Positions 3,912-62,707 of a DNA stretch of 64,000 nt are shown one piece after another (positions within the stretch are counted from its first letter, which is position 1; each line of letters opens with the position of its first letter). The position numbers were made by a program, and so were the translations under genes. The notes beneath the pieces are model-generated. The model saw only the letters and a program-made list of their open reading frames with translations, was not told where the DNA came from and searched no databases. This DNA comes from an uncultured Candidatus Berkelbacteria bacterium (GTDB lineage: Bacteria > Patescibacteriota > UBA1384 > UBA12157 > JAENIV01). The stretch lies in NCBI GenBank assembly GCA_963698075.1, contig OY969116.1, forward strand, positions 313,010 to 377,009, given 5' to 3'.

Positions 3912-5144
3912 TTAGGATGTGGCGATGCTAGCGTGCTCTTCGATACTAGCGTAAGGAAGGAAGGGCTCGACCCACTCCTCGACAGGTCTGGCGTCGAAGA
4001 TATTCCGGCGCAATAGCCGGTTGCCAACGGTTCCGATTGCCTGCTCCATCATCCAGACGGACTGGCGAGTGGCTTCCTCGATCTGCTGGTCAGTCACATA
4101 CTGGTTGATGTAATGGAGCCAGTCGTCCCCGTGGTCTCGCATTGCTGATTCCTTGGCCGCGTAGATCCCCTGTGCCCGGAAGACCGCGCGCTGGATCTCT
4201 TTATTCGCGGGAATCAGGTAATTGATATCACCTCGAGCGTAGGGAACTGCCAGGCGATTTTCATCGACCGTACAGGCGAAATCGCCGAAGCGTCCAGCGG
4301 CTTCCTCGACTTTGCCATCAATGTTGTCGATGCCCGCAGCCCGACAGAACGCGCGTTGATGATGGGCATTGCGCACTAACGTGGCCTGCCAGGCGGTGAA
4401 GGACAGATCGTCGAGATGCATGAAGCGCTGAGCTTCCTCGGGGGTGATGTCCTTATCGCCGGCCGGATCGTACTTTGCGTTGAAACTGATCGCCGGTTCA
4501 TCCATGAGGAATCCAGGGTTCGGAATCCGGTCGAGGTTGGCGTCGGCGAATACCTGCCGCATCTTGGGATCTTCCATGATTCCAGGAATCGCCCGAATCT
4601 CGTCGAGCCCGACGACCGTCTCGTCATAGGTCGCCAACTGCTCATAGCGATTCCCCATGCCCGCGGCGTTGAAGATCCGTTTGAATGTTGAGCTGCCGAG
4701 CGGGAAGCCGAACCGGAAGATGCATTCGGCGTCCGAGACGAAGGTCGTTATATGGCCGGCTGCGATGAGGCGGTGGTAGATGGCGCGGCTCTCGACAGTG
4801 AGAACGTCGCTGAGGATGTATGGGGTGGCCGCCAACCGCATAACCACCTTGTTGCTCTTCTCTCCTCGGTCAAGGAGAGTCCCGACGGTAACGACCTGGT
4901 CGCCATGATCCAGCATGCCGACGTAGGTGCTCCGGAACCCGGCCTTAGCCGCTTCTTCCCAGTAGTATGCCGCGGTCATCGCGAGGACATATCTCTTGCC
5001 ACGTATCTCCTGTGATGGAATCTTCTTCTTGAGATCGGCGACCGAGAAGCGCCCGCTGACGATCCACGGTCCGATGCCCAGGTACCAAAGCCCGGGCGCC
5101 ACGAATTGCGGCCAGGTTGGATCCAAGTCCTTGACGCTACCCAT
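3912..5144 (-). CDS. ATP-dependent purine-pathway-type ligase (PurP/FAICAR-synthetase-like or PurC-like); GC-rich, assignment uncertain
   Basis: 410 aa; segments YVLAMTAAYYWEEAAKAGFRSTYV and GMGNRYEQLATYDE resemble archaeal PurP (TIATLGSH..KGAKxEGFxTV; GARGGRGYFIA). Partial resemblance to SAICAR synthetase also noted. GC about 58% against the low-GC background. Confidence 0.3.
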   Translation of the reverse strand: MGSVKDLDPTWPQFVAPGLWYLGIGPWIVSGRFSVADLKKKIPSQEIRGKRYVLAMTAAYYWEEAAKAGFRSTYVGMLDHGDQVVTVGTLLDRGEKSNKVVMRLAATPYILSDVLTVESRAIYHRLIAAGHITTFVSDAECIFRFGFPLGSSTFKRIFNAAGMGNRYEQLATYDETVVGLDEIRAIPGIMEDPKMRQVFADANLDRIPNPGFLMDEPAISFNAKYDPAGDKDITPEEAQRFMHLDDLSFTAWQATLVRNAHHQRAFCRAAGIDNIDGKVEEAAGRFGDFACTVDENRLAVPYARGDINYLIPANKEIQRAVFRAQGIYAAKESAMRDHGDDWLHYINQYVTDQQIEEATRQSVWMMEQAIGTVGNRLLRRNIFDARPVEEWVEPFLPYASIEEHASIATS

Positions 5145-5163
5145 CGTTTCCTCCTTGCCTTTC

Positions 5164-5736
5164 CTAGCGTTGACCGGCTACCGCATTACCGGCCAAAACG
5201 ATGGCCTCATCCAAGAGTAGTACTTCGACCGGACGCGGCTTGGGAAGCTTGACCTCGGGGAGTTGTCCCTTGATGGCAAACCTGCAGGCACGCAAGAAAC
5301 CCTCGGATCCGACGAACGTGCGGATACCATCACCACTAACCACCTGGGTTCCTGGGACTTCCGTTATAGACAGCTTCGCTGCCAAGGTATGCTTGTTGTT
5401 GCTTGGATCTTCGAACGCTACTCCTACCACGATAATATGAGTGTCATTAAGAGAGTAGCGCAGATATGAATCGCATATCCCCGTGAGGTGATTTGCCCAT
5501 CCCGCCGCCGTTAACAGAACGTCGATTGGCGGCTTCATTTTGCTCAGAGACTCCAGATGAGCAAGCGTCTCCCGCGTTACACGATGGATGCTACTAGCCC
5601 GGATATCGATGAGCTCGATTTCCCCGTGCTTCTTGGCCGTTGCGAGCAACTGAAGGCCATCAAGGCACTGCTTGAGATCGGACTTTGAACCAACTATTAC
5701 AGCGATTCTTCTCATGCCGTGTTTTCCCTCCATCAC
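5164..5736 (-). CDS. PurE-like (AIR carboxylase / N5-CAIR mutase fold) protein, GC-rich
   Basis: IAVIVGSKSDL (GSxSD motif) and LLTAAGWANHLTG (AGxAAHLPG-like) match PurE-family signatures. Confidence 0.5.
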   Translation of the reverse strand: MMEGKHGMRRIAVIVGSKSDLKQCLDGLQLLATAKKHGEIELIDIRASSIHRVTRETLAHLESLSKMKPPIDVLLTAAGWANHLTGICDSYLRYSLNDTHIIVVGVAFEDPSNNKHTLAAKLSITEVPGTQVVSGDGIRTFVGSEGFLRACRFAIKGQLPEVKLPKPRPVEVLLLDEAIVLAGNAVAGQR

Positions 5737-5845
5737 GAAGGTTCATCCCGCCTTTGGCAGGAGCATTTTAAGAGTACAAATTCACCCTGATTTTGTCAAT
5801 CCATTCGACTTCGCTCAGGATTGATACTGAGTTAAAATCGAAGTG

Positions 5846-6514
5846 TCAAACTTTGATTTCTAAAGTATCGTAGGCCAAATTAAAACGCTTATCGCCTAAT
5901 TTTTGAACAATTGCCGTCATTTCTTTGTGGGTTTTTCGCGTATGGCCGTTATGGGTAAAATAGATCTTTTTTAAATTTTTATAGGGCTTGATTGTCGCGA
6001 TGATCTCGTTGATTGACAGATGTCCCCCAAAAGTTCTACCGAGCATCGAACCGTCAAGGATAGCAATTTTGACTTCTTGTAGATATTTCTCCGCTAAATT
6101 GAGTGATAAACTATCAGGAATATAGGCAACGTCGTTAACTATTAAACCGACGGTGGGGGCCATTTTAGAATGTTCAACTTTGAAAGCAAAAAAATCAATT
6201 CCCAGAAGTTTAAAATGTTGACCGGGCTTTGCCCGGATTAACCTGATATCGCGGTTAATTCTTAAGATAAATTTGAGACCACCGATATGATCCTCGTGCT
6301 CGTGAGTGACAATTAAAGTATCAATATTTCTTATTTGGGGAGTCCTCAACTGCTTTAAAATATCAGGGGAGGCATCGATTAAAATTTTTTTGTTAATCAA
6401 AATTGATGACCGTAATCTTTGGTCTTTTTTATCTTTTGATTGACATTGGGGACAATCGCAGCTTTCTCGCGGGATGGCTTTTTCACTTGAGGTACCCAAA
6501 AATTTTATCGTCAT
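5846..6514 (-). CDS. MBL-fold metallo-hydrolase (PhnP/ElaC-like)
   Basis: THEHEDHIGG metal-binding motif; additional His/Asp further downstream. Confidence 0.6.
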   Translation of the reverse strand: MTIKFLGTSSEKAIPRESCDCPQCQSKDKKDQRLRSSILINKKILIDASPDILKQLRTPQIRNIDTLIVTHEHEDHIGGLKFILRINRDIRLIRAKPGQHFKLLGIDFFAFKVEHSKMAPTVGLIVNDVAYIPDSLSLNLAEKYLQEVKIAILDGSMLGRTFGGHLSINEIIATIKPYKNLKKIYFTHNGHTRKTHKEMTAIVQKLGDKRFNLAYDTLEIKV

Positions 6515-8412: not shown

Positions 8413-8964
8413 TTAATCCCCCAAAGGCAAAGTCTTTATTAAAGTATGTTTCGGCCCATCGCTTAAGAGTTCAGATTCGAATAGGATAATTTCTTTTACC
8501 GGAAAACAAGGAAAATCTTTTTTGGATATCTTATTGACAATATTTTCAAGATTTCTGGATTTTTTTATTCTGGCAAAAGTGACATGTGGCTTGAATTTGC
8601 GTGAATCATCAAACTGGATATCAGCCGCCTTCAAAATTTTACTGATTTTTTCTTGAAAATGAATAATTTCTTCATTTTCCTTAAAGCCCACCCAAAGATT
8701 ATGAGGTTTTTCTAAATTCGGAAACCCGCCTAAATTCAAACAAGTTAGCTTTAGTTTTTCAGATCTAATTTTTCCCAAAGACTCCACAATTTTTGGAATC
8801 AAAGTATAGTCTGTATCACCTAAAAAAACCAAAGTCAAATGGATATTTTCCGGTTTAACCCATTTGGCGTCAACACCAGCTGATTTCAATTCTTCCTGAA
8901 TCACCCTGATTTTTTGTTGAATTTCGTCGGGGATTTCAATCGCCACGAACAATCTCTTTTTCAT
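8413..8964 (-). CDS. thpR: RNA 2',3'-cyclic phosphodiesterase (2H phosphoesterase, LigT/ThpR)
   Basis: Two HxT/S motifs: HLTLVFLG and HVTFAR. Confidence 0.7.
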   Translation of the reverse strand: MKKRLFVAIEIPDEIQQKIRVIQEELKSAGVDAKWVKPENIHLTLVFLGDTDYTLIPKIVESLGKIRSEKLKLTCLNLGGFPNLEKPHNLWVGFKENEEIIHFQEKISKILKAADIQFDDSRKFKPHVTFARIKKSRNLENIVNKISKKDFPCFPVKEIILFESELLSDGPKHTLIKTLPLGD

Positions 8965-9017
8965 GGCTTCATTTTACCATATCTGTTATAATGAATAAAG
9001 AAATCACAAATAAATTG

Positions 9018-9168
9018 GGAGCGAAGCCAAGTATCCTCAAAAGTGGCTATCGCAGGCCAAAAAGCATGGTTCCGAGGTAATCCGAGGATTTTTGGCCGAG
9101 ATCGCAGGCACCGATTGCGCGCTGGAGCAATCGTAGTGCCGGCATCTTTTGACGGATACTGGCGAGCG
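9018..9168. mobile_element. MITE-like element copy 1 (intergenic), imperfect terminal inverted repeats
   Basis: Ends GAGCGAAGCCAAGTATCCTCAAAAGT ... ACTTTTGACGGATACTGGCGAGCGA are shared with the copy at 16621-16749. Core is GC-rich with internal direct repeats (atcgcaggc x2, tccgagg x2). Confidence 0.5.
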
Positions 9169-9173
9169 ATATT

Positions 9174-10058
9174 ATGAAAGAATGCTACCTCTATCAAAAA
9201 TCAGGCGATTACACCGTTTGTGCTACTTGCAACCACCGCTGTCGGATTGCGCCTTATAAACGCGGTATTTGTGGAGTAAGAGAGAATCAGCAAGGAAAAT
9301 TACATCTTTTAGTCTATGGTCGAATTATTGCTGAAAATATTGACCCAATCGAAAAAAAGCCCTTGTATCATTTTATGCCCGGAACTTCCTCTCTTTCTAT
9401 CGCCACTGTTGGCTGTAATTTTCGTTGTCTTTGGTGCCAAAACTGGGATATCGCCCAATGCACTAAAGACAATGCCGACCGCACCGAAATTACCAGTAAA
9501 ATGGGCATTGAAATGGAACCGGAACAAATAGTTGAAGACGCCAAAAAATACGGCTGTCCCTCAATTTCTTATACTTATACTGAACCGACAATTTTTCTCG
9601 AATTTGCCTTAGATACCATGAAACTGGCAAAAAAAGCGGGTCTAAAAAATGTTTGGGTCTCCAACGGCTATATGACAACGGAGACACTTGATTTAATCAC
9701 GCCATATCTGGATGCGATTAATGTAGATTTAAAGGGATTTAGCGAAGAAAATTATTTAAAATATTCCGGGGCCAAGTTACAGCCGGTCCTAGATAATATC
9801 CGCGAGATCTATAAACGCAAGATCCATCTTGAAGTCACGACTTTGATCGTCCCAGGGGTTAATGATGACGAAAAACAACTAAATGATATCGCCCAATTTC
9901 TCGCCTCGATATCAAAAAACATTCCCTGGCATATTTCCCGGTTTTTCCCAGCCTACAAAATGCCCGATACACCGGTAACGCCCATTGAGACCTTAGAACT
10001 GGCCGAAAAACTTGGCAAAAAAGCTGGTTTAAAGTATATTCATTTAGGAAATATTTAA
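9174..10058 (+). CDS. AmmeMemoRadiSam system radical SAM enzyme
   Basis: CNFRCLWC CxxxCxxC motif; PFL-activase-like architecture; immediately followed by Memo-like and AMMECR1 genes. Confidence 0.7.
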   Translation: MKECYLYQKSGDYTVCATCNHRCRIAPYKRGICGVRENQQGKLHLLVYGRIIAENIDPIEKKPLYHFMPGTSSLSIATVGCNFRCLWCQNWDIAQCTKDNADRTEITSKMGIEMEPEQIVEDAKKYGCPSISYTYTEPTIFLEFALDTMKLAKKAGLKNVWVSNGYMTTETLDLITPYLDAINVDLKGFSEENYLKYSGAKLQPVLDNIREIYKRKIHLEVTTLIVPGVNDDEKQLNDIAQFLASISKNIPWHISRFFPAYKMPDTPVTPIETLELAEKLGKKAGLKYIHLGNI

Positions 10059-10066
10059 GGAATAAA

Positions 10067-10885
10067 ATGTCTCTTAATTTTGCTGCCATCACCCCTCATC
10101 CCCCAATAATTATCCCCGGAATCGGTTCTCCGAAAGATTTAGAAAAAGTTGCCTTAACCGTCCAGGCGATGCGTAAATTAGCCAATTCCTTCCGCGAAGC
10201 CGAAATTGAAACATTACTGGTTATATCCCCCCATACTTTAGTCTATCCCGACCGTTTCAATATCGGCGGCATGAAAAAACTTTTTGGCACTTTTGCCCCT
10301 TTCGGGGCACCCGATGTAATGCTGGAATTTCCGAACGACATTGACCTTGCCCGAGAAATTGACGCTCAGGCTAATCAACAAGACATTAAAACCCTACTCT
10401 ATGACAATAGCGGCGAATTTTTTGAACTTGACCATGGAATTATGGTGCCTTTGTATTATCTGACTATGCAACAGGAATCCGCTCTGAAGGTCATCCCTCT
10501 CGCCTATTCCAATTTAGACCGCGCCAAACATTTTGCTTTTGGCCAGATTATTGGCGAGGTTATCAAGAAAAACCCGACGAGGATTGGCATCGTTGCCTCC
10601 GGCGATCTTTCCCATCGTCTAATCCAAGGCGCACCAGGTGGATACTCCGAGGCCGGTAAAAAATTCGATCAGAAATTGGTCGACGATTTAAAAGCTGGCA
10701 ATATTCAAGAAGTCATGTTCTATGACGAAGAATTTGTTGATGATGCTGGCGAATGCGGCTACCGCTCAATCTTGATTTTGTTGGGTATTTTAGATGGACT
10801 TTCTCTTAAGCCCGAGATAGTATCTTATGAAGGTCCTTTTGGCGTCGGTTATTTAGTCGCCAATTACCCACTCAAAAATGACTAA
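10067..10885 (+). CDS. AmmeMemoRadiSam system protein B (Memo-like / class III extradiol dioxygenase fold)
   Basis: TPHPPIIIPG, ISPHT, DHGIMVPL, IVASGDLSHRL parallel Memo-family APHAGY..GPSHH..EHSIEM..SSDFCH positions. Confidence 0.6.
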   Translation: MSLNFAAITPHPPIIIPGIGSPKDLEKVALTVQAMRKLANSFREAEIETLLVISPHTLVYPDRFNIGGMKKLFGTFAPFGAPDVMLEFPNDIDLAREIDAQANQQDIKTLLYDNSGEFFELDHGIMVPLYYLTMQQESALKVIPLAYSNLDRAKHFAFGQIIGEVIKKNPTRIGIVASGDLSHRLIQGAPGGYSEAGKKFDQKLVDDLKAGNIQEVMFYDEEFVDDAGECGYRSILILLGILDGLSLKPEIVSYEGPFGVGYLVANYPLKND

Positions 10886-11408
10886 AATGAACGCTTGTGT
10901 TGATTTGGCTCAAAAAACAATCAAAGACTATTTAATAGATGGTCGAATTTTTGACGCCGATTTGGCCCCAGAGACTTTAAGAAAAAATCGCGCTGGTTGT
11001 TTCGTCTCTTTGCACTTAAAAGATAATAAGGAATTACGCGGATGTATTGGCACGATTTTGCCAACCTGCAAAAATCTCGCTGGTGAAATTATTAACAATG
11101 CTATTTCTGCCTGTCGGGATCCGAGATTTACGCCGGTAACTAAAGAAGAATTGGATAACTTGGATATTTCGGTCGATGTTTTAAGCGATCCAGAACCGAT
11201 TTCTTCGGTTAAATCCCTTGAACCAAAAAAATATGGCGTGATTGTCAAAGCCAAAGACGGCCGTACCGGATTGCTCCTTCCTGATTTAGAAGGAATAGAT
11301 GACGCCGCCTATCAAGTGGCCATTGCTAAACAGAAGGCTGGGATATTACCAGACGAATCGGTATATCTTTACCGTTTTACTGTCGAGAGACATAAGGAAA
11401 TAACTTAA
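10878..11408 (+). CDS. AmmeMemoRadiSam system protein A (AMMECR1 domain)
   Basis: AGCFVSLH...LRGCIGT hallmark of AMMECR1. Confidence 0.75.
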   Translation: MTKMNACVDLAQKTIKDYLIDGRIFDADLAPETLRKNRAGCFVSLHLKDNKELRGCIGTILPTCKNLAGEIINNAISACRDPRFTPVTKEELDNLDISVDVLSDPEPISSVKSLEPKKYGVIVKAKDGRTGLLLPDLEGIDDAAYQVAIAKQKAGILPDESVYLYRFTVERHKEIT

Positions 11409-11423: not shown

Positions 11424-12389
11424 GTGGGAGAAAAACCTTCGTTTAGCCCTGAAGAAAATTATGCTCAATTTAAAGAAACTCAAAGAAAAAAACAAGAACT
11501 AGCTTTGAAAAAAGGTCAATTCGATGCTAGTAATTGGCTGGTTAAACTTTTTCACAAAAGATCATTTGCTAAAGAGTACCAACAAATAGCATCTAAGTCG
11601 GCTCAATTAGAAAAAGAAAGTGAAAGGATGATTGCGGATGCAAAATTTCATATGAGGCAAATACAACAAGAAGCACAGATCGAAGAAATTAAAAGAAATC
11701 CCCAAGTATTAAAAACTTTGGAAGATGATTATTCACGCCTAGACGACAGTGAAAGAGACCGTTTTTTTAATCAAAGAATTCCTATTGCGGTAGCCTTTGC
11801 TCGAGGATATGTTTTGCGAGGAAAAGATTTTTCCAGCGCAGGACTCTTACCAAGTGAGAAGACTAATGGTCATATTGAATTCACTAAGCCATGGAGACCG
11901 GAAGATTTTGAATTAGGTAGATATTCCGGTCCAGAAAGACAACCTGACCAGAACGTCGTCAAGTTGGACGAAAGTGGTAAACTTAGTACGTCAGCATTAA
12001 GAAATGCTCTACTCACATTATTTGAGCCAACGCAAGAACTAATTGCAAAAGACGAAGCTGCAGCCTCAATTAGTCCAACACTATGGAACAGAGAGCTTTT
12101 AAAAATTGTAAATTCTTTGTCTGAATTAAATCGATTTTTAACCTATCTTTCACCTCATTTAGTTGAGACTAGTATAAATTTAGAAGAAGTTTACGAAGGC
12201 AGTAGGCATCTACCAAAGGCGGATCTAGGGAGAATGAATGTTTTACCTTCTAGGTCTTATCAGAACGCAGCGCTTGGTGAATTCTATTATGTTAACACAG
12301 TTTCGGGTATATATACGCTTTATCCGCTTCTAATCGAAAAAATTAAAGAATCCCAAGAATCTAATCCTGACGTATTCTCAAACTCTTAG
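11424..12389 (+). CDS. Hypothetical protein (GTG start), coiled-coil N-terminus
   Basis: 321-aa ORF with no motif I can recognise; starts gtgggagaaaaacc. Confidence 0.3.
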   Translation: MGEKPSFSPEENYAQFKETQRKKQELALKKGQFDASNWLVKLFHKRSFAKEYQQIASKSAQLEKESERMIADAKFHMRQIQQEAQIEEIKRNPQVLKTLEDDYSRLDDSERDRFFNQRIPIAVAFARGYVLRGKDFSSAGLLPSEKTNGHIEFTKPWRPEDFELGRYSGPERQPDQNVVKLDESGKLSTSALRNALLTLFEPTQELIAKDEAAASISPTLWNRELLKIVNSLSELNRFLTYLSPHLVETSINLEEVYEGSRHLPKADLGRMNVLPSRSYQNAALGEFYYVNTVSGIYTLYPLLIEKIKESQESNPDVFSNS

Positions 12390-12398: not shown

Positions 12399-12755
12399 AT
12401 GCAAATAGCTCAAATTGTTCCCAAAGTGAGAACTCAAGATGAGGGTGTTTTTGATTATGCGATACCACCGGCATTATTGCCAATGATAAAAGTTGGTCTC
12501 CTAACCGAAATCCCCTTTCACGGTCGAAAAATTGAAGGGATAATAGTTAAATTAAAATCCAAATCGCATGCGGTACAAATTTCAAATCTCAAATCTATTT
12601 CAAATATTATCGATCCAGTCCCTGCTGTTGATGATACCCATATCAAACTTGCCCAATGGATGACGAATTATTATTTGGAGCCGTTAGGAAAAACTCTCTT
12701 TGAATTTATCGTCCCGCCGGCCAAAAGAACCATTAAAAAACTGGCCCATGAATAA
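12399..12755 (+). CDS. priA: Primosomal protein N' N-terminal (3'-DNA-binding) domain, as a separate ORF
   Basis: 118 aa; stop TAA overlaps ATG of the next ORF (ATGAATAA at 12748-12755); PriA-type N-terminus. Confidence 0.55.
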   Translation: MQIAQIVPKVRTQDEGVFDYAIPPALLPMIKVGLLTEIPFHGRKIEGIIVKLKSKSHAVQISNLKSISNIIDPVPAVDDTHIKLAQWMTNYYLEPLGKTLFEFIVPPAKRTIKKLAHE

Positions 12756-14190
12756 AAAATATTTAATTATTGGCGACTTTCAAACGAGATTAAAGTTCTA
12801 TTTGGCGGCTATCCAAAAAACGCTGACTAAAAATCATTCAATAATTATTTTAGTCCCTGATTTATCGCTGATTTCATATTTTACTCGGTATTTCAAAAAT
12901 CCTTATTCAATTCTGCACGCCGGCCTAAAAAAAACCGAGCGTTGGCTCGAATGGAACCGTATTCGCGAAGGAAAAGTAAAAATTATCATTGGTTCACAAT
13001 CAGCTCTTTTTGCGCCGGTAAAAAATTTGGGCTTAATTATCATTGATCAAGAAGAAAATGAAACCTATAAAAACGACCGATCACCAAGATTCCACGCTGT
13101 CCGGGTGGCCGAAGAATTATCTCGCCTCGCCAGGACCAATTTAGTTCTGGGAAGCATCTTGCCGCGTGTCGAAACCTATCATCAAGCGATTAAAGGCAAA
13201 TATCAAATCCTCAAAAAATCGGCCTTAGCTTCCAAGAATATTACCATTGTCGATATGAATTCGGAAAAATATGTTATTTCAAATACCTTGGAAAAAGAAA
13301 TTGAAAATACATTAATTCAAAAACAAAAAATATTATTAGTTCTCAATCGCAAAGGCGAAGGGACAAAATTTTCTTGTACCGATTGCGGTTGGATTGCTCT
13401 TTGTGAAAAATGCGGCCTGCCCTTGATTCCTCAAAGAGCGGAAAATGTTTGTTATCGCTGTGAGAAATCATCTCCCCCGCCTTTATCCTGTCCAAAATGC
13501 CGCGGCGTTCATCTGAAACCAATGGGTTTGGGCACGGCCCGCTTAAAAAAATTTGTAACCGATTTATTCCCGAAGGCAAAAATCATCCAGGTCGAAAAGG
13601 AAAGCGACGGCCGTCTTGTTAGATACAACTGGGATATTGCCATCACGACAATTTACGGGCTCAAATTCAGCTGGCCGAAAATTGGTTTGGTTGGCATAAT
13701 CGACGCTGACCAAGGTTTGAATTTTCCTGATTTTTCGAGCCCTCAAAAAACTTTCCAAAATTTATATAAATTTTTACGAATAGGCGAGAGGGGAATAGTC
13801 CAAACTCATTTGCCAGAAAACTATTGTTTACGGGCTCTGGCAGGCTTAAACTATGAAAGATTTTTCTTAGATGAAATCACCCAAAGACGAAAATTTGCCT
13901 TTCCGCCGTTTAATCGCCTTGTTCGCCTTTTATTCAAAAATGCTGATGAAGAAAAAGCCAAAAAAGAAACAGTGAGAATATACCAATCACTAATCACCAA
14001 TCACTTTCCACTAACCACTATCTCCAGACCACATCCCGCTTTCATTTCCAAAGAACGCGGGAAATATCGCTATCAGATTGTAATAAAAATCTCAAGCCTA
14101 AGATCTAAGTTCTCAAATCAGTTAAAAGATACTTTACGAACTCTTCCCAAGGGCTGGATTATTGACGTCGATCCCGTGAATTTGCTATGA
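12748..14190 (+). CDS. priA: PriA helicase-core-like protein with degenerate motifs plus Cys4 zinc module
   Basis: LIIIDQEENETYKNDRSPRFHAVRVA aligns to E. coli PriA motif II region (IVIDEEHDSSYKQ..RYHARD) with DEEH changed to DQEE. No Walker A GKT near the start. CTDCGW..CEKCG..CYRCE..CPKCRG zinc-binding region retained. Confidence 0.65.
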   Translation: MNKKYLIIGDFQTRLKFYLAAIQKTLTKNHSIIILVPDLSLISYFTRYFKNPYSILHAGLKKTERWLEWNRIREGKVKIIIGSQSALFAPVKNLGLIIIDQEENETYKNDRSPRFHAVRVAEELSRLARTNLVLGSILPRVETYHQAIKGKYQILKKSALASKNITIVDMNSEKYVISNTLEKEIENTLIQKQKILLVLNRKGEGTKFSCTDCGWIALCEKCGLPLIPQRAENVCYRCEKSSPPPLSCPKCRGVHLKPMGLGTARLKKFVTDLFPKAKIIQVEKESDGRLVRYNWDIAITTIYGLKFSWPKIGLVGIIDADQGLNFPDFSSPQKTFQNLYKFLRIGERGIVQTHLPENYCLRALAGLNYERFFLDEITQRRKFAFPPFNRLVRLLFKNADEEKAKKETVRIYQSLITNHFPLTTISRPHPAFISKERGKYRYQIVIKISSLRSKFSNQLKDTLRTLPKGWIIDVDPVNLL

Positions 14191-14756: not shown

Positions 14757-15926
14757 ATGAGAAAATTAAAGATCGGCATTTTTACCGAATGTTATCATCC
14801 GGTACTCAATGGCGTGGTGGTTTCGATTGAAACTTTTCGTCAAGCCCTTGAAAAACGTGGGTTTGAGTTTTTCATTTTCACCACTCAATGTCCGGGTTAT
14901 CACGAAAAAAATGCCCGCGTCAGGCGATTTAACTCAATGATCCCCTTCCCGTCCAAAGGCGGACGTTATCCGATTGCCTGGCCGCAAATCGCCAGATTGC
15001 AAGCCCCACGCATCGCGCCATCAAATCTTGACCTCATTCACAGCCAGCATCTTTTGGGTATTGGTCATTTAGGTCTAAAAGTTGGCAGAATCCTAAAAAT
15101 TCCGACCATCCTCACTTACCACACCCTCTTGGCTGAATACACCCATTACGCGCCCGGAATAGGGGCAATTTTAAAATGGTATCTAATCCATGCCAGCCGA
15201 GAAATTTCCAACCAATACGATCGAATTGTCACCCCTTCACCATCGATGAAAAGGGTTTTACGTTCCTATGGCGTCAGACGTCCAATTGAACCCATCCCTA
15301 CCGGCGTTAATATTGCTGATTTTCAAAATCATTATTCAAAAGAGGAAATCAGAAAAAAATGGCAAATACCCGAGCACCAAAAAATCCTTCTTTACGTCAG
15401 CCGAATCGCCAAAGAAAAAAATCTTGACTTTCTCTTTGAATCTATTGAACGAATAGCTACCAAGCGTGATGATTTTCATCTTTTGATGGTTGGTGGCGGA
15501 CCAGAGCTTAAATACTATCAAGCAAAAATCCACGAGTGGCATCTGAAACCATTCGTCACTTTTACTGGAATGCAACCCAAAAAAGAAGCTAACCGTTTTT
15601 ATGGCGCGGCGGATATCTTTGTCTTCCCCTCAATCACCGAAACCCAAGGAATTGTGGTCACCGAAGCCATGGCTGCCGGTGTGCCGGCAGTGGCTGTCAA
15701 TCAAATGGGACCAAGCGATATTATCCAAGATGGGATTGACGGCTTTCTTGTGCCCTTGAAAACGGATGAATTTACTGCTAAAATAGAACTTCTGCTTGAC
15801 GATGATAACTTAAGAACCAGGATGGGCCGCGAAGCTCGCCAGAACGCTCGTAAGTTCTCAGTCGAAGCTTGCGCCCAGAAAATGGAAAAAATATATGAAA
15901 GAACCATCGATCATCACCGTTCCTAA
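14757..15926 (+). CDS. GT4 family glycosyltransferase
   Basis: ETQGIVVTEAMAAGVPAVAVN (EX7E-type motif) and GT-B layout; SD aaggatggg 5 nt before ATG 14757. Confidence 0.7.
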   Translation: MRKLKIGIFTECYHPVLNGVVVSIETFRQALEKRGFEFFIFTTQCPGYHEKNARVRRFNSMIPFPSKGGRYPIAWPQIARLQAPRIAPSNLDLIHSQHLLGIGHLGLKVGRILKIPTILTYHTLLAEYTHYAPGIGAILKWYLIHASREISNQYDRIVTPSPSMKRVLRSYGVRRPIEPIPTGVNIADFQNHYSKEEIRKKWQIPEHQKILLYVSRIAKEKNLDFLFESIERIATKRDDFHLLMVGGGPELKYYQAKIHEWHLKPFVTFTGMQPKKEANRFYGAADIFVFPSITETQGIVVTEAMAAGVPAVAVNQMGPSDIIQDGIDGFLVPLKTDEFTAKIELLLDDDNLRTRMGREARQNARKFSVEACAQKMEKIYERTIDHHRS

Positions 15927-17433
15927 TGAGAAACTTTCCGAGGCGACAAGTAAAGTCACCTCTTTTGTGCAAGATTCTAATGAGCTTAAAAAACAAATCC
16001 GAAATATGGTGGCAATCCTGCGCCAAGAAGGCGGTATTGGTCTGGCTGCTAACCAATTGGGTTATGATAATCAAGTCCTAGCTATTGAATTTAAGGAATC
16101 TGATCAAAAGTCTTCTAAAAAGTCCTCGAAAAAAAATGCGGAAAAGACGGAAATCCCTTTGACAATTTTTGTAAATCCCGAAATTGTCGAATACGGGAAA
16201 ACAATTGAATGCTTTGAAGAGGGATGTCTTTCGGTGCCTAAAATCGAACTTGAAGTTGAGCGGCCGACCCAAATTAAAATTAAATATCAAAACGAAAAAG
16301 GGAAAAAAATCAAAGCCGCCCCCAAAGGTTTGCTCGCCCGCATCCTTCAGCATGAAATTGATCATCTGGGTGGCATCATCTTTACCGAACGTGTCAGAGA
16401 GCAGTTTTTTCAAAAATACCCAGAGTTGAAAAAACTAAAAATCGCATTTTTCGGTAGCGGAGAGTTTGGGGCTATCATTTTAGAAGGTTTAATCTTACTT
16501 GGGCTGAATCTCGATATCTATACGGAAAAATCAAAACCGGCCGGCCGCAGCCAAGTAACTCGCGCGACGCCCGTGGCAGAAGTGGCTAAAAAGTTTGGAA
16601 AAGATTATTTTGAAGTAGAAGCGAGCCAAGTATCCTCAAAAGTAAATCGCGGAGGCGAGCCGCACGGACAAGGGCGAGCCGAGCGTTTAGACCCGATTTC
16701 CTCGCAGGGGAAATCGAGGTCGGTACTTTTGACGGATGCTGGCGAGCGACCATTTGATTCTCTCGTCTGTGTTGATTTTGGTCAAAAAATCCCCGAATCG
16801 ATATTAAAACAAGCCAAAATTGCCGCCCTCAATATTCATCCCTCGCTTTTACCAAAATATATCGGCCCGACACCAATTCAAACGGCGATACTTAATGGCG
16901 ATAAGAAAACTGGCGTGTCAATTATTCAAATGACCGATAAAATTGATCAAGGCCCGCTTTATTCCCAAATTGAAACGGAAATTCTCGAAAACGATACCAC
17001 ACCCCTTCTCCACGACCGCCTCGCCACTTTGGGTCTAAAATTATTAATCAAAACCTTACCCAAAATCGTCCGTGGCGAAATCGAAACTGTCAGTCAGGAT
17101 TTATCCAAAACGATAAGGACGCGCAAATTCACTAAAGCCAATGGTGAAATTGACTGGCGAAAATCCCCCAAAAAAATTGATGCCAAAATCCGCGCCTTTT
17201 CCCCTTGGCCGGGTTCGTATACCCGCCTGCCAGCGCCTGAAGCCGCAGGCAATGGCGGGCAGGCTTTCGTCGATAATAAACGCCTAATTATCCACAAAGC
17301 TCATATTAAAAAAGACAAATTAGTTCTCGACATAGTTCAGAGTGAGGGCAAAAAACCAATGAAATTTTCTGAATTTTTACGCGGCTTTCACGGTCCAAAA
17401 CCGGAGTGGTTTAGGAAAGTATTATTGACATAA
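15895..17433 (+). CDS. fmt: Peptide deformylase - methionyl-tRNA formyltransferase fusion (single 512-aa ORF)
   Basis: N-terminal GIGLAANQLG, EGCLSVP, QHEIDHLGG (PDF motifs). C-terminal IAFFGSGEFG ... NIHPSLLPKYIGPTPIQ ... WRK..FSPWPG (Fmt). No stop or start between the two parts. Overlaps the upstream GT4 gene by 32 nt. Confidence 0.75.
   Translation: MKEPSIITVPNEKLSEATSKVTSFVQDSNELKKQIRNMVAILRQEGGIGLAANQLGYDNQVLAIEFKESDQKSSKKSSKKNAEKTEIPLTIFVNPEIVEYGKTIECFEEGCLSVPKIELEVERPTQIKIKYQNEKGKKIKAAPKGLLARILQHEIDHLGGIIFTERVREQFFQKYPELKKLKIAFFGSGEFGAIILEGLILLGLNLDIYTEKSKPAGRSQVTRATPVAEVAKKFGKDYFEVEASQVSSKVNRGGEPHGQGRAERLDPISSQGKSRSVLLTDAGERPFDSLVCVDFGQKIPESILKQAKIAALNIHPSLLPKYIGPTPIQTAILNGDKKTGVSIIQMTDKIDQGPLYSQIETEILENDTTPLLHDRLATLGLKLLIKTLPKIVRGEIETVSQDLSKTIRTRKFTKANGEIDWRKSPKKIDAKIRAFSPWPGSYTRLPAPEAAGNGGQAFVDNKRLIIHKAHIKKDKLVLDIVQSEGKKPMKFSEFLRGFHGPKPEWFRKVLLT
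16621..16749. mobile_element. MITE-like element copy 2, 129 bp inserted in-frame within fmt
   Basis: GCGAGCCAAGTATCCTCAAAAGT ... ACTTTTGACGGATGCTGGCGAGCGA. Adds 43 codons (ASQVSSKVNRGGEPHGQGRAERLDPISSQGKSRSVLLTDAGER) between DYFEVE and PFDSLVCVDFG, the position where E. coli Fmt has a short linker. Confidence 0.5.
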
Positions 17434-20697: not shown

Positions 20698-21780
20698 ATG
20701 AAATATTTTATCTTTACACTCGGCTGCCAAATGAATGTGAGCGATTCAGAACGGATCGCCACCATTTTAGAAAAGCGGGGATACTCTCCGAACGCTGAGA
20801 AAGTGGCCGATTTAATTATCGTCAACGCTTGTTCGGTCCGCCAAAAGGCGGTTGACCGAATTTGGGGCAAAGTCAAAATTTGGCAACTGCACCATAAAAA
20901 AATTTTATTAACTGGCTGTGTTTTGCCTGCCGACCGCAAAAAATTTGCCGAAAAGGGGATTGGTTACTTAAACTTTTATGATGATAATTTTTTTGATATT
21001 GTCCCTAAAAACCTATCCCCTATAACCTATATACCGATCATGACTGGCTGTGATAATTTTTGCTCTTATTGTGCCGTCCCCTACACTCGCGGCCGCGAAA
21101 AATCCCGACCGGTAAAAGATATCTTGGACGATGTCAAACGTGCTCTCAAAGACAAATCTAAGGAAATATTATTGTTGGGCCAAAATGTCAATTCTTATGG
21201 AAAACTAAAAAGTAAAAACTCAAAAGTTAAAACTTCAACTAAAAAGTTAAAAGATAATAAAGAATTTATAAAACTATTAAAATCCATTGATAATCTGCCT
21301 GGAAATTTTAAGTTCAACTTTATTTCATCTAATCCCCATGATATGGACGATGAACTGATTAAAACTTTTGCTAAATTAAAAAAATGGCCCCGAGAACTTC
21401 ATCTGCCGCTCCAATCCGGTGATGACGAAATTCTACACAAAATGAATCGCAAATATACTAGCGCTCAATATCTTAAACTAATTGAAAATTTAAAATTTTC
21501 GCCGAAGGCAGGCATGCAAATTGAAAATTTATCTTTAACCACCGATATCATCGTCGGTTTTCCTGGTGAGACCAAAAAACAATTCGAAAATACTCTAAAA
21601 CTTTGTAAAAAAGTCAAGTTCGATAAAGCCTACATTGCCCAGTATTCCCCTCGCCCCGGCACCGCGGCAGCCGAATTTAGAGATGATGTTTTATCAACCG
21701 AGAAAAAAAGAAGATGGGAATTACTCGATAGCTTAATCAACAAAAAAACGACGGCTTGCCCCGTTAATGACGCACTGTGA
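20698..21780 (+). CDS. MiaB/RimO-family radical SAM methylthiotransferase (short form)
   Basis: N-terminal MTTase domain FTLGCQMN; radical SAM CDNFCSYCAVP. Confidence 0.7.
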   Translation: MKYFIFTLGCQMNVSDSERIATILEKRGYSPNAEKVADLIIVNACSVRQKAVDRIWGKVKIWQLHHKKILLTGCVLPADRKKFAEKGIGYLNFYDDNFFDIVPKNLSPITYIPIMTGCDNFCSYCAVPYTRGREKSRPVKDILDDVKRALKDKSKEILLLGQNVNSYGKLKSKNSKVKTSTKKLKDNKEFIKLLKSIDNLPGNFKFNFISSNPHDMDDELIKTFAKLKKWPRELHLPLQSGDDEILHKMNRKYTSAQYLKLIENLKFSPKAGMQIENLSLTTDIIVGFPGETKKQFENTLKLCKKVKFDKAYIAQYSPRPGTAAAEFRDDVLSTEKKRRWELLDSLINKKTTACPVNDAL

Positions 21781-38062: not shown

Positions 38063-38365
38063 GGGGCTATCAAGCTTCGACGGGAAACAATTTGACAATT
38101 TCAAGTCGAGAAGGCTACGAACCTCGCAAAATCCGTGGCAAACACTAAACGCTAACAAGCAATTAGTACCTGCCTTAGCCTAATAGGCTAATGCACGTCG
38201 TTCCATTTGTTGGTTGACCGAATGGAAACGGCGCCAACCGTCAACCTCTGGGGATGGAAGATCGTCCTGGTACTATCCTTGAAACAAACGAGGGCAAATG
38301 CTAAGCTTGTCAACGATTATCAAAGAGTTTTTCGGACGGGAGTGCGATTCTCCCTAGCTCCACCA
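38063..38365 (+). ncRNA. ssrA: tmRNA (ssrA), short form with encoded CCA
   Basis: 5' GGGGCUAUCAAGCUUCGACGGG and 3' GGACGGGAGUGCGAUUCUCCCUAGCUCCACCA match tmRNA tRNA-like-domain consensus. Internal frame gct aac aag caa tta gta cct gcc tta gcc TAA TAG (tag ANKQLVPALA). Confidence 0.8.
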
Positions 38366-49913: not shown

Positions 49914-49989
49914 TGGTGCCCTCGGCAGGATTTGAACCCGCGACCTCTGGCACCGGAGGCCAGCGTTCTGTCCACTGAACTACGAGGGC
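49914..49989 (-). tRNA. tRNA-Arg (anticodon CCG) with CCA
   Basis: rc gccctcgtagttcagtggacagaacg-ctggc-ctccggt-gccag-aggtc-gcggg-ttcaaat-cctgc-cgagggc-a-cca. Confidence 0.85.
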
Positions 49990-49990
49990 C

Positions 49991-50066
49991 TGGCGCCCTC
50001 GGGCCGAGTCGAACGGCCAACCTCTCCCTTAGGACGGGATCGCTCTATCCATTGAGCTACGAGGGC
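49991..50066 (-). tRNA. tRNA-Arg (anticodon CCT) with CCA
   Basis: rc gccctcgtagctcaatggatagagcg-atccc-gtcctaa-gggag-...-ggccg-ttcgact-cggcc-cgagggc-g-cca; 1-nt spacer to the previous tRNA. Confidence 0.8.
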
Positions 50067-50171
50067 TTTAGATAGATTTTATCATTTTTGTAAGATATAA
50101 TAAACTTGTTTAAAGAATCACTCCTTAGGGAGAAGTTTTTTTCAAAGAGTAAATTTGAAAATAAAGTTACT

Positions 50172-50246
50172 CGGGGACTGGCCTAATGGTAAGGCGCAGC
50201 GTTCGGGACGCTGAGATTCCGGGTTCGACTCCCGGGTCCCCGACCA
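50172..50246 (+). tRNA. tRNA-Pro (anticodon CGG) with CCA
   Basis: cggggac-tg-gcct-aatggta-aggc-g-cagcg-ttcggga-cgctg-agat-tccgg-gttcgac-cccgg-gtccccg-a-cca. Confidence 0.85.
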
Positions 50247-56363: not shown

Positions 56364-56441
56364 TGGTAGCGCCGACGGGATTCGAACCCGTGATCTCCAG
56401 GATGAAAACCTGGTATCCTAAACCAACTAGACGACGGCGCC
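56364..56441 (-). tRNA. tRNA-Glu (anticodon TTC) with CCA
   Basis: rc ggcgccg...ccagg-ttttcat-cctgg...acggg-ttcgaat-cccgt-cggcgct-a-cca. Its 5' 25 nt are duplicated at 56516-56540. Confidence 0.85.
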
Positions 56442-56861
56442 ATAATGCTTATTTGTCAACTAACGATATATTTCTGGAGCTTTGTTCCAGTGGATGAAAA
56501 CCGCCGTGTACGGCCCTAAACCAACTAGACGACGGCGCCATATTACCATTTTATATGACAATAAGCCTGAAGTAAAGGAGAAACGGTTTTGCTGCAACAA
56601 AAATAACCCCTCGCATAAAGCTGTGGGTTACACCCTTACTTCCTTGTCGCTTCTGGCTTGCCACCCGAAGCTCCAAAGGAACGAAAGGTGGAGAGACATT
56701 CGGGTCTAGAACCTTTTGGCTCTTTTTTATTAATGAAGCAATTTCCTTTTTTCATAAAGGGGTTTAATTTCTTCAGTTAATTGGTTAGTCACTGCATTCC
56801 CTTCATTCTTTTCTCTGTGGTCTCGATCTACAGCCGTGTATGAGATTTGCCACTGTATTCG

Positions 56862-57422
56862 TTATTTAGTCTGATTTAGCGCATCTTTAATATTGCCCCA
56901 GTATTCTTTGGTCGTATCGAAGAACGGTACATTCAGCTTCTTGCAAACCTCCTCTAAACGTTTACTTTCTGATATCAAAAACTCGAACTCCTCAAGTAAT
57001 TCCTCGTTGCTCATTTCATTAGTCCAGTTGGTTACGTCAAATTCGCGGCATTTTGCCAGTCGTTCTTGTGGTGTTGTATTTGGATAACCAAATACAAAAT
57101 ATTGTAAGTGAGGATACTTCGCATACAAATCCTCAAGCGGCAGAAGGAAGCCTTCAATCACAAAGCCATCTACATCCATTCCGTCGATCATTCGGAAGAC
57201 AAAAGGTCTAAACTTTTGACACACCTCGATGTGTTCTTTGAGGTTGGGCGCTCTATGTGTAATACCTAGCTGCGGAAACACATCCTCAAATCCCTCGATA
57301 ATCGGGTCAATACAAATATGCTGAACAAAATATTTCTTCACCAATTCGTGAGAAAAAGTAGACTTACCGGCAGTGGGTACGCCAGTGACTATAAATTGAT
57401 GAAATTTCTGTTCTTGTCCCAT
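56862..57422 (-). CDS. P-loop NTPase/kinase-like protein
   Basis: IVTGVPTAGKST Walker A; 186 aa; sits between the two tRNA-fragment scars. Confidence 0.4.
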   Translation of the reverse strand: MGQEQKFHQFIVTGVPTAGKSTFSHELVKKYFVQHICIDPIIEGFEDVFPQLGITHRAPNLKEHIEVCQKFRPFVFRMIDGMDVDGFVIEGFLLPLEDLYAKYPHLQYFVFGYPNTTPQERLAKCREFDVTNWTNEMSNEELLEEFEFLISESKRLEEVCKKLNVPFFDTTKEYWGNIKDALNQTK

Positions 57423-57498
57423 AACTTGAATCCCTTTGTTCTTGTATCTTAGAGTCTTTTTTGCTTCTCCTACCTTTTACGCGGTCCCAAGCTTCTAA

Positions 57499-57540
57499 TT
57501 GGAGGGCTCGGTGGGATTCGAAGGTCGGTGTCCAACCGAC
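57499..57540 (-). repeat. Duplicated 3' end (24 nt) of tRNA-Lys fused to GGTCGGTGTCCAACCGAC motif
   Basis: ttggagggctcggtgggattcgaa is identical to 57685-57708 of tRNA-Lys, followed by the 18-nt hairpin motif instead of the T-stem. Confidence 0.5.
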
Positions 57541-57685
57541 GTCTCGATTCGTGCTTGTATTGGTTTATCTTAATTTAATGGCTCAATCCATCTGAGCCGT
57601 TCAATTTCTATCTCGTCGGCTATCATTGTGGGTTCTCACCCAACCGACCCAAGCCAGAAACCCCGATAAACCAGGGGTTCTGGCT

Positions 57686-57760
57686 TGGAGGGCTCGGTGG
57701 GATTCGAACCCACGACAAGTTGCTTAAGAGGCAACTGCTCTGCCACTGAGCTACGAGCCC
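57686..57760 (-). tRNA. tRNA-Lys (anticodon CTT) with CCA
   Basis: rc gggctcg-ta-gctc-agtggca-gagc-a-gttgc-ctcttaa-gcaac-ttgtc-gtggg-ttcgaat-cccac-cgagccc-t-cca. Confidence 0.85.
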
Positions 57761-57761
57761 A

Positions 57762-57834
57762 CGCCCTCGGCGTGATTCGAACACGCAACCTAAGGGTTAG
57801 AAACCCTTCGCTCTATCCATTAAGCTACGAGGGC
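57762..57834 (-). tRNA. tRNA-Arg (anticodon TCT), no CCA
   Basis: rc gccctcg-ta-gctt-aatggata-gagc-g-aaggg-tttctaa-ccctt-aggtt-gcgtg-ttcgaat-cacgc-cgagggc-g. Confidence 0.8.
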
Positions 57835-57849
57835 AAAATGCTCTACTCA

Positions 57850-57914
57850 CCCCGTTAATTCCGCACTATCATAATACTATGGAATAGATTTGATAGTAAG
57901 GAATTTTGCGGGGT
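57850..57914. repeat. 65-bp repeat copy 2, adjacent to a tRNA 5'-fragment-like sequence
   Basis: About 83% identical to 21759-21823. Followed by ccactgagctacaggggc (rc gcccctgtagctcagtgg, a tRNA acceptor+D-arm-like 5' fragment). Confidence 0.4.
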
Positions 57915-58024
57915 CCACTGAGCTACAGGGGCATCAAGTAAATTATACCAGATAACCATTTGATGAAAAAGAGACCCAGCCCCCCCCAAGTGGGGGCTGG
58001 GTCTTCGGCAGGCCGCGATTGAAA

Positions 58025-58756
58025 CTACCACCAGTCGACGGCCTGGGATACTTCGACCTCCTCCCCCTCATCGATACTAAAATGGACCGGCAGGGTAAGG
58101 GCTGCGTAGGGCCCCCATCCCAGCGACACCGTATAGCTGCCGGCAAAGAGCTCGGGCCAAACGGCCTGGCCCGAGGAGTTGGTGTAATGATACTCCTCCA
58201 CATGGAGGAGTCCCCCTAGTGTCAATCCATCCAACCAAACCAGGACGCCCGGCGCGGGAGCGCCAGACTCATCGGTCACTGTTGCGGTCACCCTCGAGTA
58301 CTCGCACACATCGAGGGCAACGACGTGGATTTCGCCGGGGGTGCCGGCGAAGTCGATGGTCGCCGTATCTCCATCCTGGCGAAGTCCATCGACCTGCATA
58401 AAGGTCCACCAGTCAGAGGGAAGCTGGAAGATAACCCTCCATTTCCCTCTCGACGCCCTTACCTCAACCGGCGTCGAATACCTCTTGGTCTTTCCGTCGG
58501 GGTTGATGACCCACACCCGCCAGGCGAGCCATTGCTCGCCTAGATCTAGATCCAGGACGAAGTCCAGGTCCTTGTCATCCAAGACTCGGACCTGAAGCTG
58601 AGGCCAAGACGGTCCTCCCTTCTTGAGGGGAACCGCCGGCCCTGCCATCGCACTTGAGGCGATGGCGCAGAGCAACATCGACACTACCAGGAACTGCAAT
58701 ACAGCACCAACCCTTCGTCTCGACATCTTCGGACCCCTCCGTGCCAGTATCCCCAA
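58025..58756 (-). CDS. Secreted GC-rich protein with Ig/prealbumin-like (CarboxypepD_reg-like) C-terminal domain
   Basis: Signal peptide (AVLQFLVVSMLLCAIASSAMA). SGAPAPGVLVWLDG...TNSSGQAVWPELFAGSYTVSL. GC about 65%. Confidence 0.4.
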   Translation of the reverse strand: MGILARRGPKMSRRRVGAVLQFLVVSMLLCAIASSAMAGPAVPLKKGGPSWPQLQVRVLDDKDLDFVLDLDLGEQWLAWRVWVINPDGKTKRYSTPVEVRASRGKWRVIFQLPSDWWTFMQVDGLRQDGDTATIDFAGTPGEIHVVALDVCEYSRVTATVTDESGAPAPGVLVWLDGLTLGGLLHVEEYHYTNSSGQAVWPELFAGSYTVSLGWGPYAALTLPVHFSIDEGEEVEVSQAVDWW

Positions 58757-58892
58757 AACTTCTCTCGGGGGTGGAACTCAGCCTAAATGCCCCTCATCTC
58801 TCCTTTCTCCCTCCTCACCAAATTGTAAAAATCCCAAACCTGGCCACATTATATCGAGAATTTATATAAAAGTCAAGAGTAAGATACCTTAT

Positions 58893-59696: not shown

Positions 59697-59699
59697 TCT

Positions 59700-62675: not shown

Positions 62676-62707
62676 AAAATTATAAATTTACTCTCCAAGA
62701 ATTCCCA

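Follow-up and report, generated by a model that had tools for sequence, protein, structure and literature searches.

The stretch of DNA analysed here, called the window in the following, comprises 64,000 nucleotides (nt) from an uncultured Candidatus Berkelbacteria bacterium (contig OY969116.1, positions 313,010 to 377,009). Near its beginning the window encodes three consecutive proteins which are assigned to the AmmeMemoRadiSam system: a radical S-adenosylmethionine (SAM) enzyme, designated rSAM, a metalloprotein of the LigB type (component B), and a protein with an AMMECR1 domain (component A). This triad is carried on a contig of 929,420 bp, and the genome of about 0.9 Mb belongs to the Patescibacteria (candidate phyla radiation, CPR). 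The three genes are:

9174 to 10058, plus strand: AmmeMemoRadiSam-type radical SAM enzyme in a short form of 294 amino acids (aa), recognised by TIGR04337 and by Pfam Radical_SAM (84 bits)
10067 to 10885, plus strand: component B, a LigB/PCAD-type metalloprotein in the 'Memo' position, with a predicted metal site formed by H11, H56 and E229
10878 to 11408 (with the ATG at 10887 as a possible alternative start), plus strand: component A, an AMMECR1-domain protein, recognised by TIGR04335 and by Pfam AMMECR1

Organization and recognition of the three genes

The original prediction, which was made from the sequence alone, had described a complete AmmeMemoRadiSam triad of tight, overlapping genes, and the three consecutive plus-strand genes lie exactly where it had placed them. 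They are indeed tightly packed. The open reading frame (ORF) of rSAM carries the radical SAM signature C81-NFR-C85-LW-C88 (CNFRCLWC) and ends with the stop codon TAA at 10056-10058, which leaves a gap of 8 nt before the ATG of the B ORF (272 aa) at 10067. An overlap, which had been claimed for the genes in general, is found between B and A only. It amounts to 8 nt, and the two genes are 1 nt apart if A (176 aa from the first start) begins at the second ATG at 10887. In relatives a 171-aa A protein starts right behind B.

The profile hidden Markov models (HMMs) TIGR04335, TIGR04336 and TIGR04337, which had been suggested as a check, were run and score all three proteins above their cut-offs. 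The identities proposed for rSAM (284.2 bits with TIGR04337, cut-off 220) and for A (121.2 bits with TIGR04335, cut-off 99) are thereby confirmed. B reaches 34.6 bits with TIGR04336 and so does not fall below the cut-off of 26, as had been expected of an unrelated dioxygenase. Chance matches are excluded by the E-values, which are 1e-84 for TIGR04337, 2e-42 for Pfam LigB and 1e-43 for Pfam AMMECR1.

Public databases already contain a definition of this type of system, and the B family is partly annotated in them as belonging to it. We are confident that the three genes are members of the AmmeMemoRadiSam system and partners of each other. They form a genuine and probably co-transcribed operon of that kind; generic scans for promoters and terminators gave no signal above shuffled sequence. 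The interpretation of the locus is thus supported with one correction, which concerns the B subunit.

Component B is a LigB-type protein

B had been introduced as Memo-like, which is imprecise. The TIGR04336 cut-off that the protein exceeds is very low, and the match is partial (residues 97-254 of B, model positions 108-249 of 270). The match to Pfam Memo (PF01875) is partial as well and gives 39.7 bits over residues 93-254, whereas Pfam LigB (PF02900) matches with 145.5 bits (gathering threshold 26.3) from residue 6 to 264 and covers model positions 2-268 of 269. Even the match to the HpaD model TIGR02298 outscores that to TIGR04336, with 57.2 bits against a cut-off of 316; the other characterised dioxygenase equivalogs give 21-33 bits against cut-offs of 290-837. 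When the N-terminal domains of 40 long homologues were compared to the same models, all 40 matched HpaD_Fe, and 34 matched TIGR04336 at about its cut-off (~25 bits). One natural fusion of B and A domains, P0134, stays under this cut-off of 26 with 25.5 bits.

The structural relatives of B were searched in the PDB with a profile built from 22 homologues. Only chains of the dioxygenase type were found (HpaD, TK2203, aminophenol dioxygenase, LigB, DOPA dioxygenase), and no Memo chain was among the matches of this profile even at E<10. The dioxygenases are the nearest solved relatives of B, and MEMO1 is the most distant one. B is better called 'LigB/PCAD-type' than 'Memo-like'.

Residue conservation was analysed in 81 sequences from at least five phyla. 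H11 (in PHPP), H56 (in SPH) and D122 are invariant, as are S178, D180 and H183 of the SGDLSH motif, E229-C230-G231 and Y254-E-G-P-F-G-V-G. H123 is conserved in 77 and Y262 in 80 of the 81 sequences. In HpaD (8IQ8) the residues aligned with H56, H183 and E229 are His, His and Glu. The iron ligands of LigB are H12, H61 and E242, while the metal site of MEMO1 consists of H49, H81 and C244, so that a Cys replaces the Glu in the latter (PMC11081632). At the position of this third ligand B has Glu229, which is aligned to the Glu of HpaD and is followed by the invariant Cys230. The invariance of H11, H56, D122, H183, E229 and C230 and the alignment of E229 with the HpaD Glu make an active metal site in B likely, with H183 at the predicted position of the catalytic base. 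Cys230 and the motif YEGPFGVGY are specific for the family. As judged from the alignment, B appears to retain a His-His-Glu site in the style of the dioxygenases plus an adjacent family-specific Cys.

The B family is large. It yields >7,400 matches in the 90% clusters and 664 representatives at E<=1e-30 at the 50% level. Among the best 150 of these representatives, about 40% have lengths of 430-485 aa. Some members are named 'AmmeMemoRadiSam system protein B' by NCBI and JGI, and others 'class III extradiol dioxygenase subunit B-like', 'LigB subunit' or 'extradiol ring-cleavage dioxygenase class III subunit B'. The databases already put the family into the AmmeMemoRadiSam system, inconsistently so. 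For these B proteins the annotation 'extradiol ring-cleavage dioxygenase' is probably misleading.

The radical SAM enzyme and component A

In addition to the cluster site C81-x3-C85-x2-C88 rSAM contains an N-terminal group of cysteines (C16-x2-C19-x3-C23...C33), and all seven Cys are invariant among 53-54 homologues. The match to TIGR04337 spans model positions 8-286 of 349 only. A C-terminal CxxC...CxxC tail of 45-63 aa, which corresponds to model positions ~287-349, is present in 47 of 53 rSAM homologues. The window protein is without it, and so are the proteins of four other loci (L004, L071, L073 and L080). There is no room for this Cys4 tail, since the B gene begins 8 nt past the rSAM stop codon. 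A truncation caused by an assembly artefact or a frameshift was considered and ruled out: the length of 294 aa is common to the close relatives. The enzyme is therefore a natural short form, and some lineages can dispense with the C-terminal Cys4 tail. Among solved structures PflA (PDB 3C8F, E 1.5e-6) is the nearest, with a matched region that starts at residue 79. Among the models of activases YjjW gives 67 bits, PflA 66.4 bits (cut-off 231.75) and PFLE_PFLC 57.5 bits (cut-off 174.35).

Component A covers TIGR04335 nearly completely (residues 7-170, model positions 3-173 of 175) and matches Pfam AMMECR1 (PF01871) with 149.3 bits at a gathering threshold of 25. The motif L53-R-G-C56-I-G-T59 is invariant among 59 homologues. 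The relatives of A in the PDB (1VAJ, 1ZQ7 and 1WSC) were each deposited as 'hypothetical protein'.

Partnership of the three proteins in other genomes

From at least 592 loci 80 were kept, with one genome per species, and scored with the window's own proteins. These loci (cited by L numbers) belong to Patescibacteria, Chloroflexota, Bacillota, Actinomycetota and Armatimonadota, and flanks of up to 8 kb were included. B is fused to a C-terminal AMMECR1 domain in 38 of the 80 loci and is immediately followed by a separate A gene in 20. An rSAM gene is found up- or downstream within 600 nt of B in 46 loci. The flanks of 47 loci contain a complete triad, which is tight in 42. A TIGR04335 domain follows the LigB-type domain in all but one of the 40 long homologues. 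The fusion to AMMECR1 in many anaerobes indicates that the LigB-type B is a true partner of AMMECR1, and these gene arrangements show, independently of the models, that the B family belongs with A and rSAM. The match to the TIGRFAM-defined AmmeMemoRadiSam system, which had been claimed for the window, is thus borne out by the three models as well as by the clustering that recurs across the 80 loci.

Thirteen Patescibacteria-type loci keep B without an AMMECR1 or rSAM gene within 8 kb (L001, L006, L012, L014, L018, L026, L028, L032, L046, L048, L055, L072 and L075). B is usually located just upstream of priA-def-fmt in these genomes. It may therefore also work alone or with distant partners. 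Five loci (L018, L026, L028, L031 and L032) come from metagenome-assembled genomes labelled 'uncultured Gammaproteobacteria'. Their synteny is that of Patescibacteria (480-aa CPR protein, B, PriA, Def, Fmt), and the labels look doubtful.

Genomic context and search for a fourth gene

The genes in this part of the window are arranged in the order signal peptidase, PRTase (minus strand), LigT/ThpR (minus strand), rSAM, B, A, an orphan ORF of 321 aa, a split PriA, GT4, Def-Fmt, bS16, KhpA and TrmD. Relatives with a 72-79% identical B show a conserved gene order in which the 321-aa ORF is missing. More generally, the context in Patescibacteria is GltX, WecG-like, LigT (minus strand), rSAM (ClpB, 480-aa protein), B, A, PriA, Def, Fmt. 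In Bacillota uL13, uS9 and an amidase precede B-A and rSAM, and in Chloroflexota an acyl-CoA dehydrogenase-like (ACAD) gene on the minus strand is followed by rSAM, B-A and RarA.

It had been suggested to look for a conserved substrate gene in the genomic contexts of relatives. This search turned out negative: no fourth gene is conserved across the phyla of the 80 loci, and the neighbours are lineage-specific. Genes for the degradation of aromatic compounds were not found around B, neither in the window nor in the 80 loci. A dedicated substrate gene does not exist in these loci.

In four Actinomycetota-type loci (L037, L062, L066 and L078) the order is miaB-B-A-miaA-dapF-x-hflX. The genes follow each other on the same strand at short distances, and a dedicated AmmeMemo-type rSAM gene is absent within 8 kb in these four loci. 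In L052 the order is B-A-miaA, and in the metagenome contig L084 miaB is located directly upstream of a B-A fusion. B and AMMECR1 are either separate or fused in the miaB/miaA loci. A scan of metagenomes with an actinobacterial B-A fusion gave only 5 loci and the single miaB-BA case of L084, too few to judge a miaB link. The miaB-B-A-miaA arrangement is the only specific substrate lead.

The window itself encodes a radical SAM methylthiotransferase of the MiaB/RimO family (20698-21780, 360 aa) 9 kb downstream of the triad. It scores 335 bits with TIGR00089 and stays below the equivalog cut-off of MiaB. The match extends to position ~363 of 429, so that the C-terminal part of the model is missing, in which the TRAM domain is presumably located.

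On the other side of rSAM lies a gene which is part of the context and not a proven part of the system:

8413 to 8964, minus strand: LigT/ThpR, RNA 2',3'-cyclic phosphodiesterase (TIGR02258, 159.8 bits)

A LigT homologue is present in the flanks of 11 of the 80 loci, all of them Patescibacteria-type. It is mostly encoded on the opposite strand just upstream of rSAM, in L073 on the same strand, and the close relatives L081-L083 also have LigT upstream of rSAM. Three loci (L014, L026 and L072) have LigT in the flank and no rSAM in the flank. The neighbourhood of LigT and rSAM cannot be separated from general block synteny.

The 321-aa ORF (11424-12389) begins 15 nt past A, has no match in Pfam or NCBIfam and is a singleton in the 90% clusters. 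The possibility that it is a fourth component or a substrate was dismissed, as no homologue is found in the 80 loci and the close relatives do not have the ORF. It is an orphan specific to this lineage, with an insertion site between A and priA. PriA itself is split into an ORF for the 3'-DNA-binding domain (12399-12755) and an overlapping ORF for the rest of the protein (12700-14190). The same split is seen in L083 (8344-8688 and 8681-10129), whose B is 79% identical. The products comprise 114-118 aa and 482-496 aa, while the PriA of L081 is intact with 621 aa. A sequencing error seems less likely than a conserved split or a programmed frameshift.

Some other features of the window should be mentioned. 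The GC content of positions 4001-6000 is 54% compared to 38-49% elsewhere; this stretch covers the minus-strand ORFs 3912-5144 (410 aa) and 5164-5736. At the same position L083 has a 408-aa gene without Pfam match. The genes for one tmRNA and twelve tRNAs, several of which form small clusters, are located at 38063-38365, 49917-50243 and 56367-63318 and are ordinary in this translation-rich region.

The region upstream of the operon

Two features were recognised between LigT and rSAM:

8984 to 8992, plus strand: TGTTATAAT, an extended -10-like box and possible promoter of the operon; read from the sequence and weak
9020 to 9169, plus strand: copy 1 of an insertion resembling miniature inverted-repeat transposable elements (MITE-like), probably part of the 5' untranslated region; recognised by its repeated ends and its absence in relatives

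The operon had been predicted to lie directly downstream of a first copy of a MITE-like element, and this is correct. Copy 1 has a length of ~150 nt with imperfect terminal inverted repeats and stops 4 nt ahead of the rSAM ATG. It is located between the TGTTATAAT box and the start codon of rSAM in the spacer of 209 nt that separates LigT and rSAM. The orthologous spacer of L081 and L083 is 72-88 nt long, does not contain the element and has a similar box, TGATATAAT. A second copy in the same orientation (16619-16749) aligns with copy 1. The copies are ~130-150 nt long, with conserved, imperfectly inverted ends and a variable interior. The element ends AGCCAAGTATCCTCAAAAGT and CTTTTGACGGATRCTGGCGAGCGA occur twice each in the window, where ~0 occurrences are expected.

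Copy 2 was inserted in frame into the Fmt half of the Def-Fmt gene, to which it adds ~36-44 codons; this is reminiscent of the Rickettsia palindromic elements. The Def-Fmt protein has 512 aa here compared to 463 aa in the 74%-identical orthologue of L081. Def and Fmt are fused in one ORF in the window (15895-17433) as well as in L081 (11383-12774) and L082 (7643-9034, also 463 aa), and def and fmt are separate in most other Patescibacteria loci.

The predicted RNA fold of copy 1 has -66 kcal/mol and a z value of -4.65. The leader was also considered as a riboswitch. This was rejected, because Rfam gives no match for copy 1 even at E<=1, the insertion is absent from the relatives, and a second copy resides inside a coding region. 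Copy 1 is a mobile insertion that now probably serves as 5' leader of the operon. As an insertion that is absent from the relatives it is not a conserved regulator of the operon.

Proposed function and alternative explanations

The best explanation of the locus, to which we assign a probability of roughly 0.55, is that the LigB-type rSAM-B-A operon encodes an oxygen-independent enzyme of three parts that acts on a housekeeping substrate. In line with radical SAM chemistry, rSAM would cleave SAM reductively, and the 5'-deoxyadenosyl radical would take a hydrogen from the substrate. The frequent gene fusion suggests that B and A are the two parts of one enzyme, which would act either on the same substrate or on the intermediate that arises from the radical. 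The contribution of B would be its His-His-Glu metal site, in which His183 would serve as base, and that of A the cleft with its invariant Cys56. The host range suggests that this chemistry would not need oxygen and that B would not be an aromatic ring-opening dioxygenase. The carriers among the loci are mostly strict anaerobes (Dehalococcoidia, Desulforamulus, Desulfofundulus, Pelotomaculum, Thermacetogenium, Syntrophomonadaceae, Halanaerobiaceae), and radical SAM clusters are oxygen-labile, both of which argue for oxygen-independent chemistry. As substrate one would expect a housekeeping molecule of universal occurrence and not a dedicated peptide, since no dedicated substrate gene accompanies the triad and since the triad is retained in a genome of ~0.9 Mb. 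There it is kept among genes for translation and replication (LigT, PriA, Def-Fmt, bS16, KhpA, TrmD).

The leading candidate for such a substrate would be an RNA base that carries a modification, such as the isoprenylated adenine at tRNA position 37. That RNA or a nucleotide base is the substrate is a tentative proposal which may well turn out wrong. Burroughs and colleagues are said to have linked Memo-AMMECR1 contexts to the modification of nucleotide bases and isoprenoids in 2019, and the miaB-B-A-miaA arrangement would agree with such a prediction. Improbable in its full detail is the version in which B, AMMECR1 and a PflA-like rSAM form an oxygen-independent modifier of the isoprenylated/methylthiolated adenine at tRNA position 37, with MiaB as a substitute in some Actinomycetota. 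If this version were true, B would be an iron enzyme with dioxygenase fold that was recruited for anaerobic chemistry. The miaB-B-A-miaA operons would then indicate on what substrate Memo and AMMECR1 act, a pair with eukaryotic homologues that are linked to disease.

Several observations weigh against an oxygen-independent three-part enzyme with such a substrate. B is kept without A in the flank in 18 of the 80 loci, all CPR-type, and in L081 and L082 two small minus-strand ORFs lie between rSAM and B, so that the three genes are not obligatorily coupled. In the AlphaFold2 (AF2) model of the fusion P0134 the B and A domains are confident and their docking is not; given the pTM of 0.62 and the disordered linker, no composite B/A site is claimed here. 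The miaB/miaA context is limited to one phylum, where miaB...miaA-dapF-hflX already is a syntenic block, and the insertion of B-A could therefore be fortuitous. The neighbours LigT, PriA, Def and Fmt in Patescibacteria likewise reflect block synteny and do not count as specific evidence. The dioxygenase-type site, which B seems to retain according to its conserved residues, leaves oxygen-dependent chemistry formally possible. Eukaryotes possess Memo and AMMECR1 and are not known to have a partner radical SAM enzyme, and radical chemistry may therefore not be central to the role of A and B.

Other explanations place the three proteins in a different relation. The rSAM protein could be an activase that removes a hydrogen from A or B, at a residue of the invariant LRGCIG loop of AMMECR1 for example, and thereby creates a protein radical or a modified residue that would carry out the chemistry. 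Its best NCBIfam and PDB matches after TIGR04337 are indeed glycyl-radical activases (YjjW, PflA, 3C8F), A carries the invariant Gly-Cys loop, and a separate substrate gene is not conserved in the loci. We nevertheless consider an activase unlikely, because every activase model is far under its cut-off (66 against 232 bits for PflA) and because neither the N-terminal Cys4 nor the usual C-terminal Cys4 tail aligns with PflA. Moreover, eukaryotic AMMECR1 is known to retain the motif in the absence of a partner radical SAM enzyme, and some loci have B-A beside MiaB with the dedicated rSAM absent. Near the triad in the window no glycyl-radical enzyme is encoded.

The substrate could also be a small molecule, for instance a cofactor or one of the isoprenoid lipids, on which rSAM would perform the C-H activation that precedes processing by B and A; this is rather unlikely. 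Enzymes of the LigB family are known to use small molecules, ACAD genes are found beside the cluster in seven loci of Chloroflexota and Bacillota (L005, L027, L029, L034, L044, L060 and L068), and the modification of aliphatic isoprenoids has reportedly also been proposed for Memo contexts by Burroughs and colleagues. In most of these loci, however, the ACAD genes are encoded on the other strand or at a distance of several kb, and they are lineage-specific. Patescibacteria with genomes of ~1 Mb keep the triad although they generally lack the biosynthesis of lipids and cofactors. That B is an ordinary catabolic extradiol dioxygenase, located between the rSAM and AMMECR1 genes by coincidence, we regard as highly improbable in spite of its full-length match to Pfam LigB, the conserved positions of the 2-His-1-Glu site and of the catalytic His, the dioxygenases as nearest structures and the database names mentioned above. 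B is below the cut-off of each characterised dioxygenase model (HpaD as the best one with 57 against 316 bits), the closest structure, TK2203, is itself uncharacterised, and no genes for aromatic degradation are nearby. The fusion or adjacency to AMMECR1 (38 and 20 of the 80 loci) and the mostly strictly anaerobic hosts are further arguments against such a catabolic role.

Comparison with known systems

The AmmeMemoRadiSam triad is among the most widespread prokaryotic gene systems without an assigned function. Human homologues of A and B, AMMECR1 and MEMO1, are linked to developmental disease and to the motility of cancer cells. In the literature on AmmeMemoRadiSam, on AMMECR1 with radical SAM or LigB proteins and on TK2203 we found no functional study. 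The copy described here is ordinary and does not settle what Memo, AMMECR1 and rSAM do.

The nearest characterised relatives of rSAM are PflA and the other glycyl-radical activases, with which it has the CX3CX2C site and the compact radical SAM core in common. It differs from PflA by the invariant N-terminal Cys4 and by a score of 66 bits, where the cut-off is 232. B is far under the equivalog cut-offs of the class III extradiol dioxygenases (LigB, HpaD, aminophenol dioxygenase, DesB, DODA), and in contrast to these it has AMMECR1 and rSAM partners, mostly anaerobic hosts, Cys230 and the motif YEGPFGVGY. The uncharacterised LigB-like protein TK2203 from Thermococcus kodakarensis (PDB 5HEE) is 20-21% identical to B. 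Its sequence reads 'LPDSY' at the position of the invariant 'GECGY' of B, and TK2203 is therefore without the Glu-Cys pair.

Human MEMO1 (PDB 3BCZ, 7KQ8) shares superfamily and fold with B, and its metal site is found at the equivalent place. The weak matches of B to Pfam Memo and TIGR04336 extend over its C-terminal two thirds. Both proteins are partners of AMMECR1 according to comparative genomics. Among the members of the superfamily MEMO1 is not the closest structure to B.

The AmmeMemoRadiSam system as defined by the TIGRFAM models has the same content of three genes and the same tight clustering as the window operon, with A and rSAM well above the cut-offs and B nominally so. Two differences were found. 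B is better described by Pfam LigB, and its relatives straddle the TIGR04336 cut-off of 26 bits, while the rSAM protein of the window lacks the ~60 C-terminal model positions with the Cys4 tail. What the analysis adds to the known system is a large sister family of LigB-type B proteins, which are partners of AMMECR1 and whose dioxygenase-style metal site appears to be intact, and a small set of miaB-B-A-miaA operons, which give a concrete hypothesis on the substrate.

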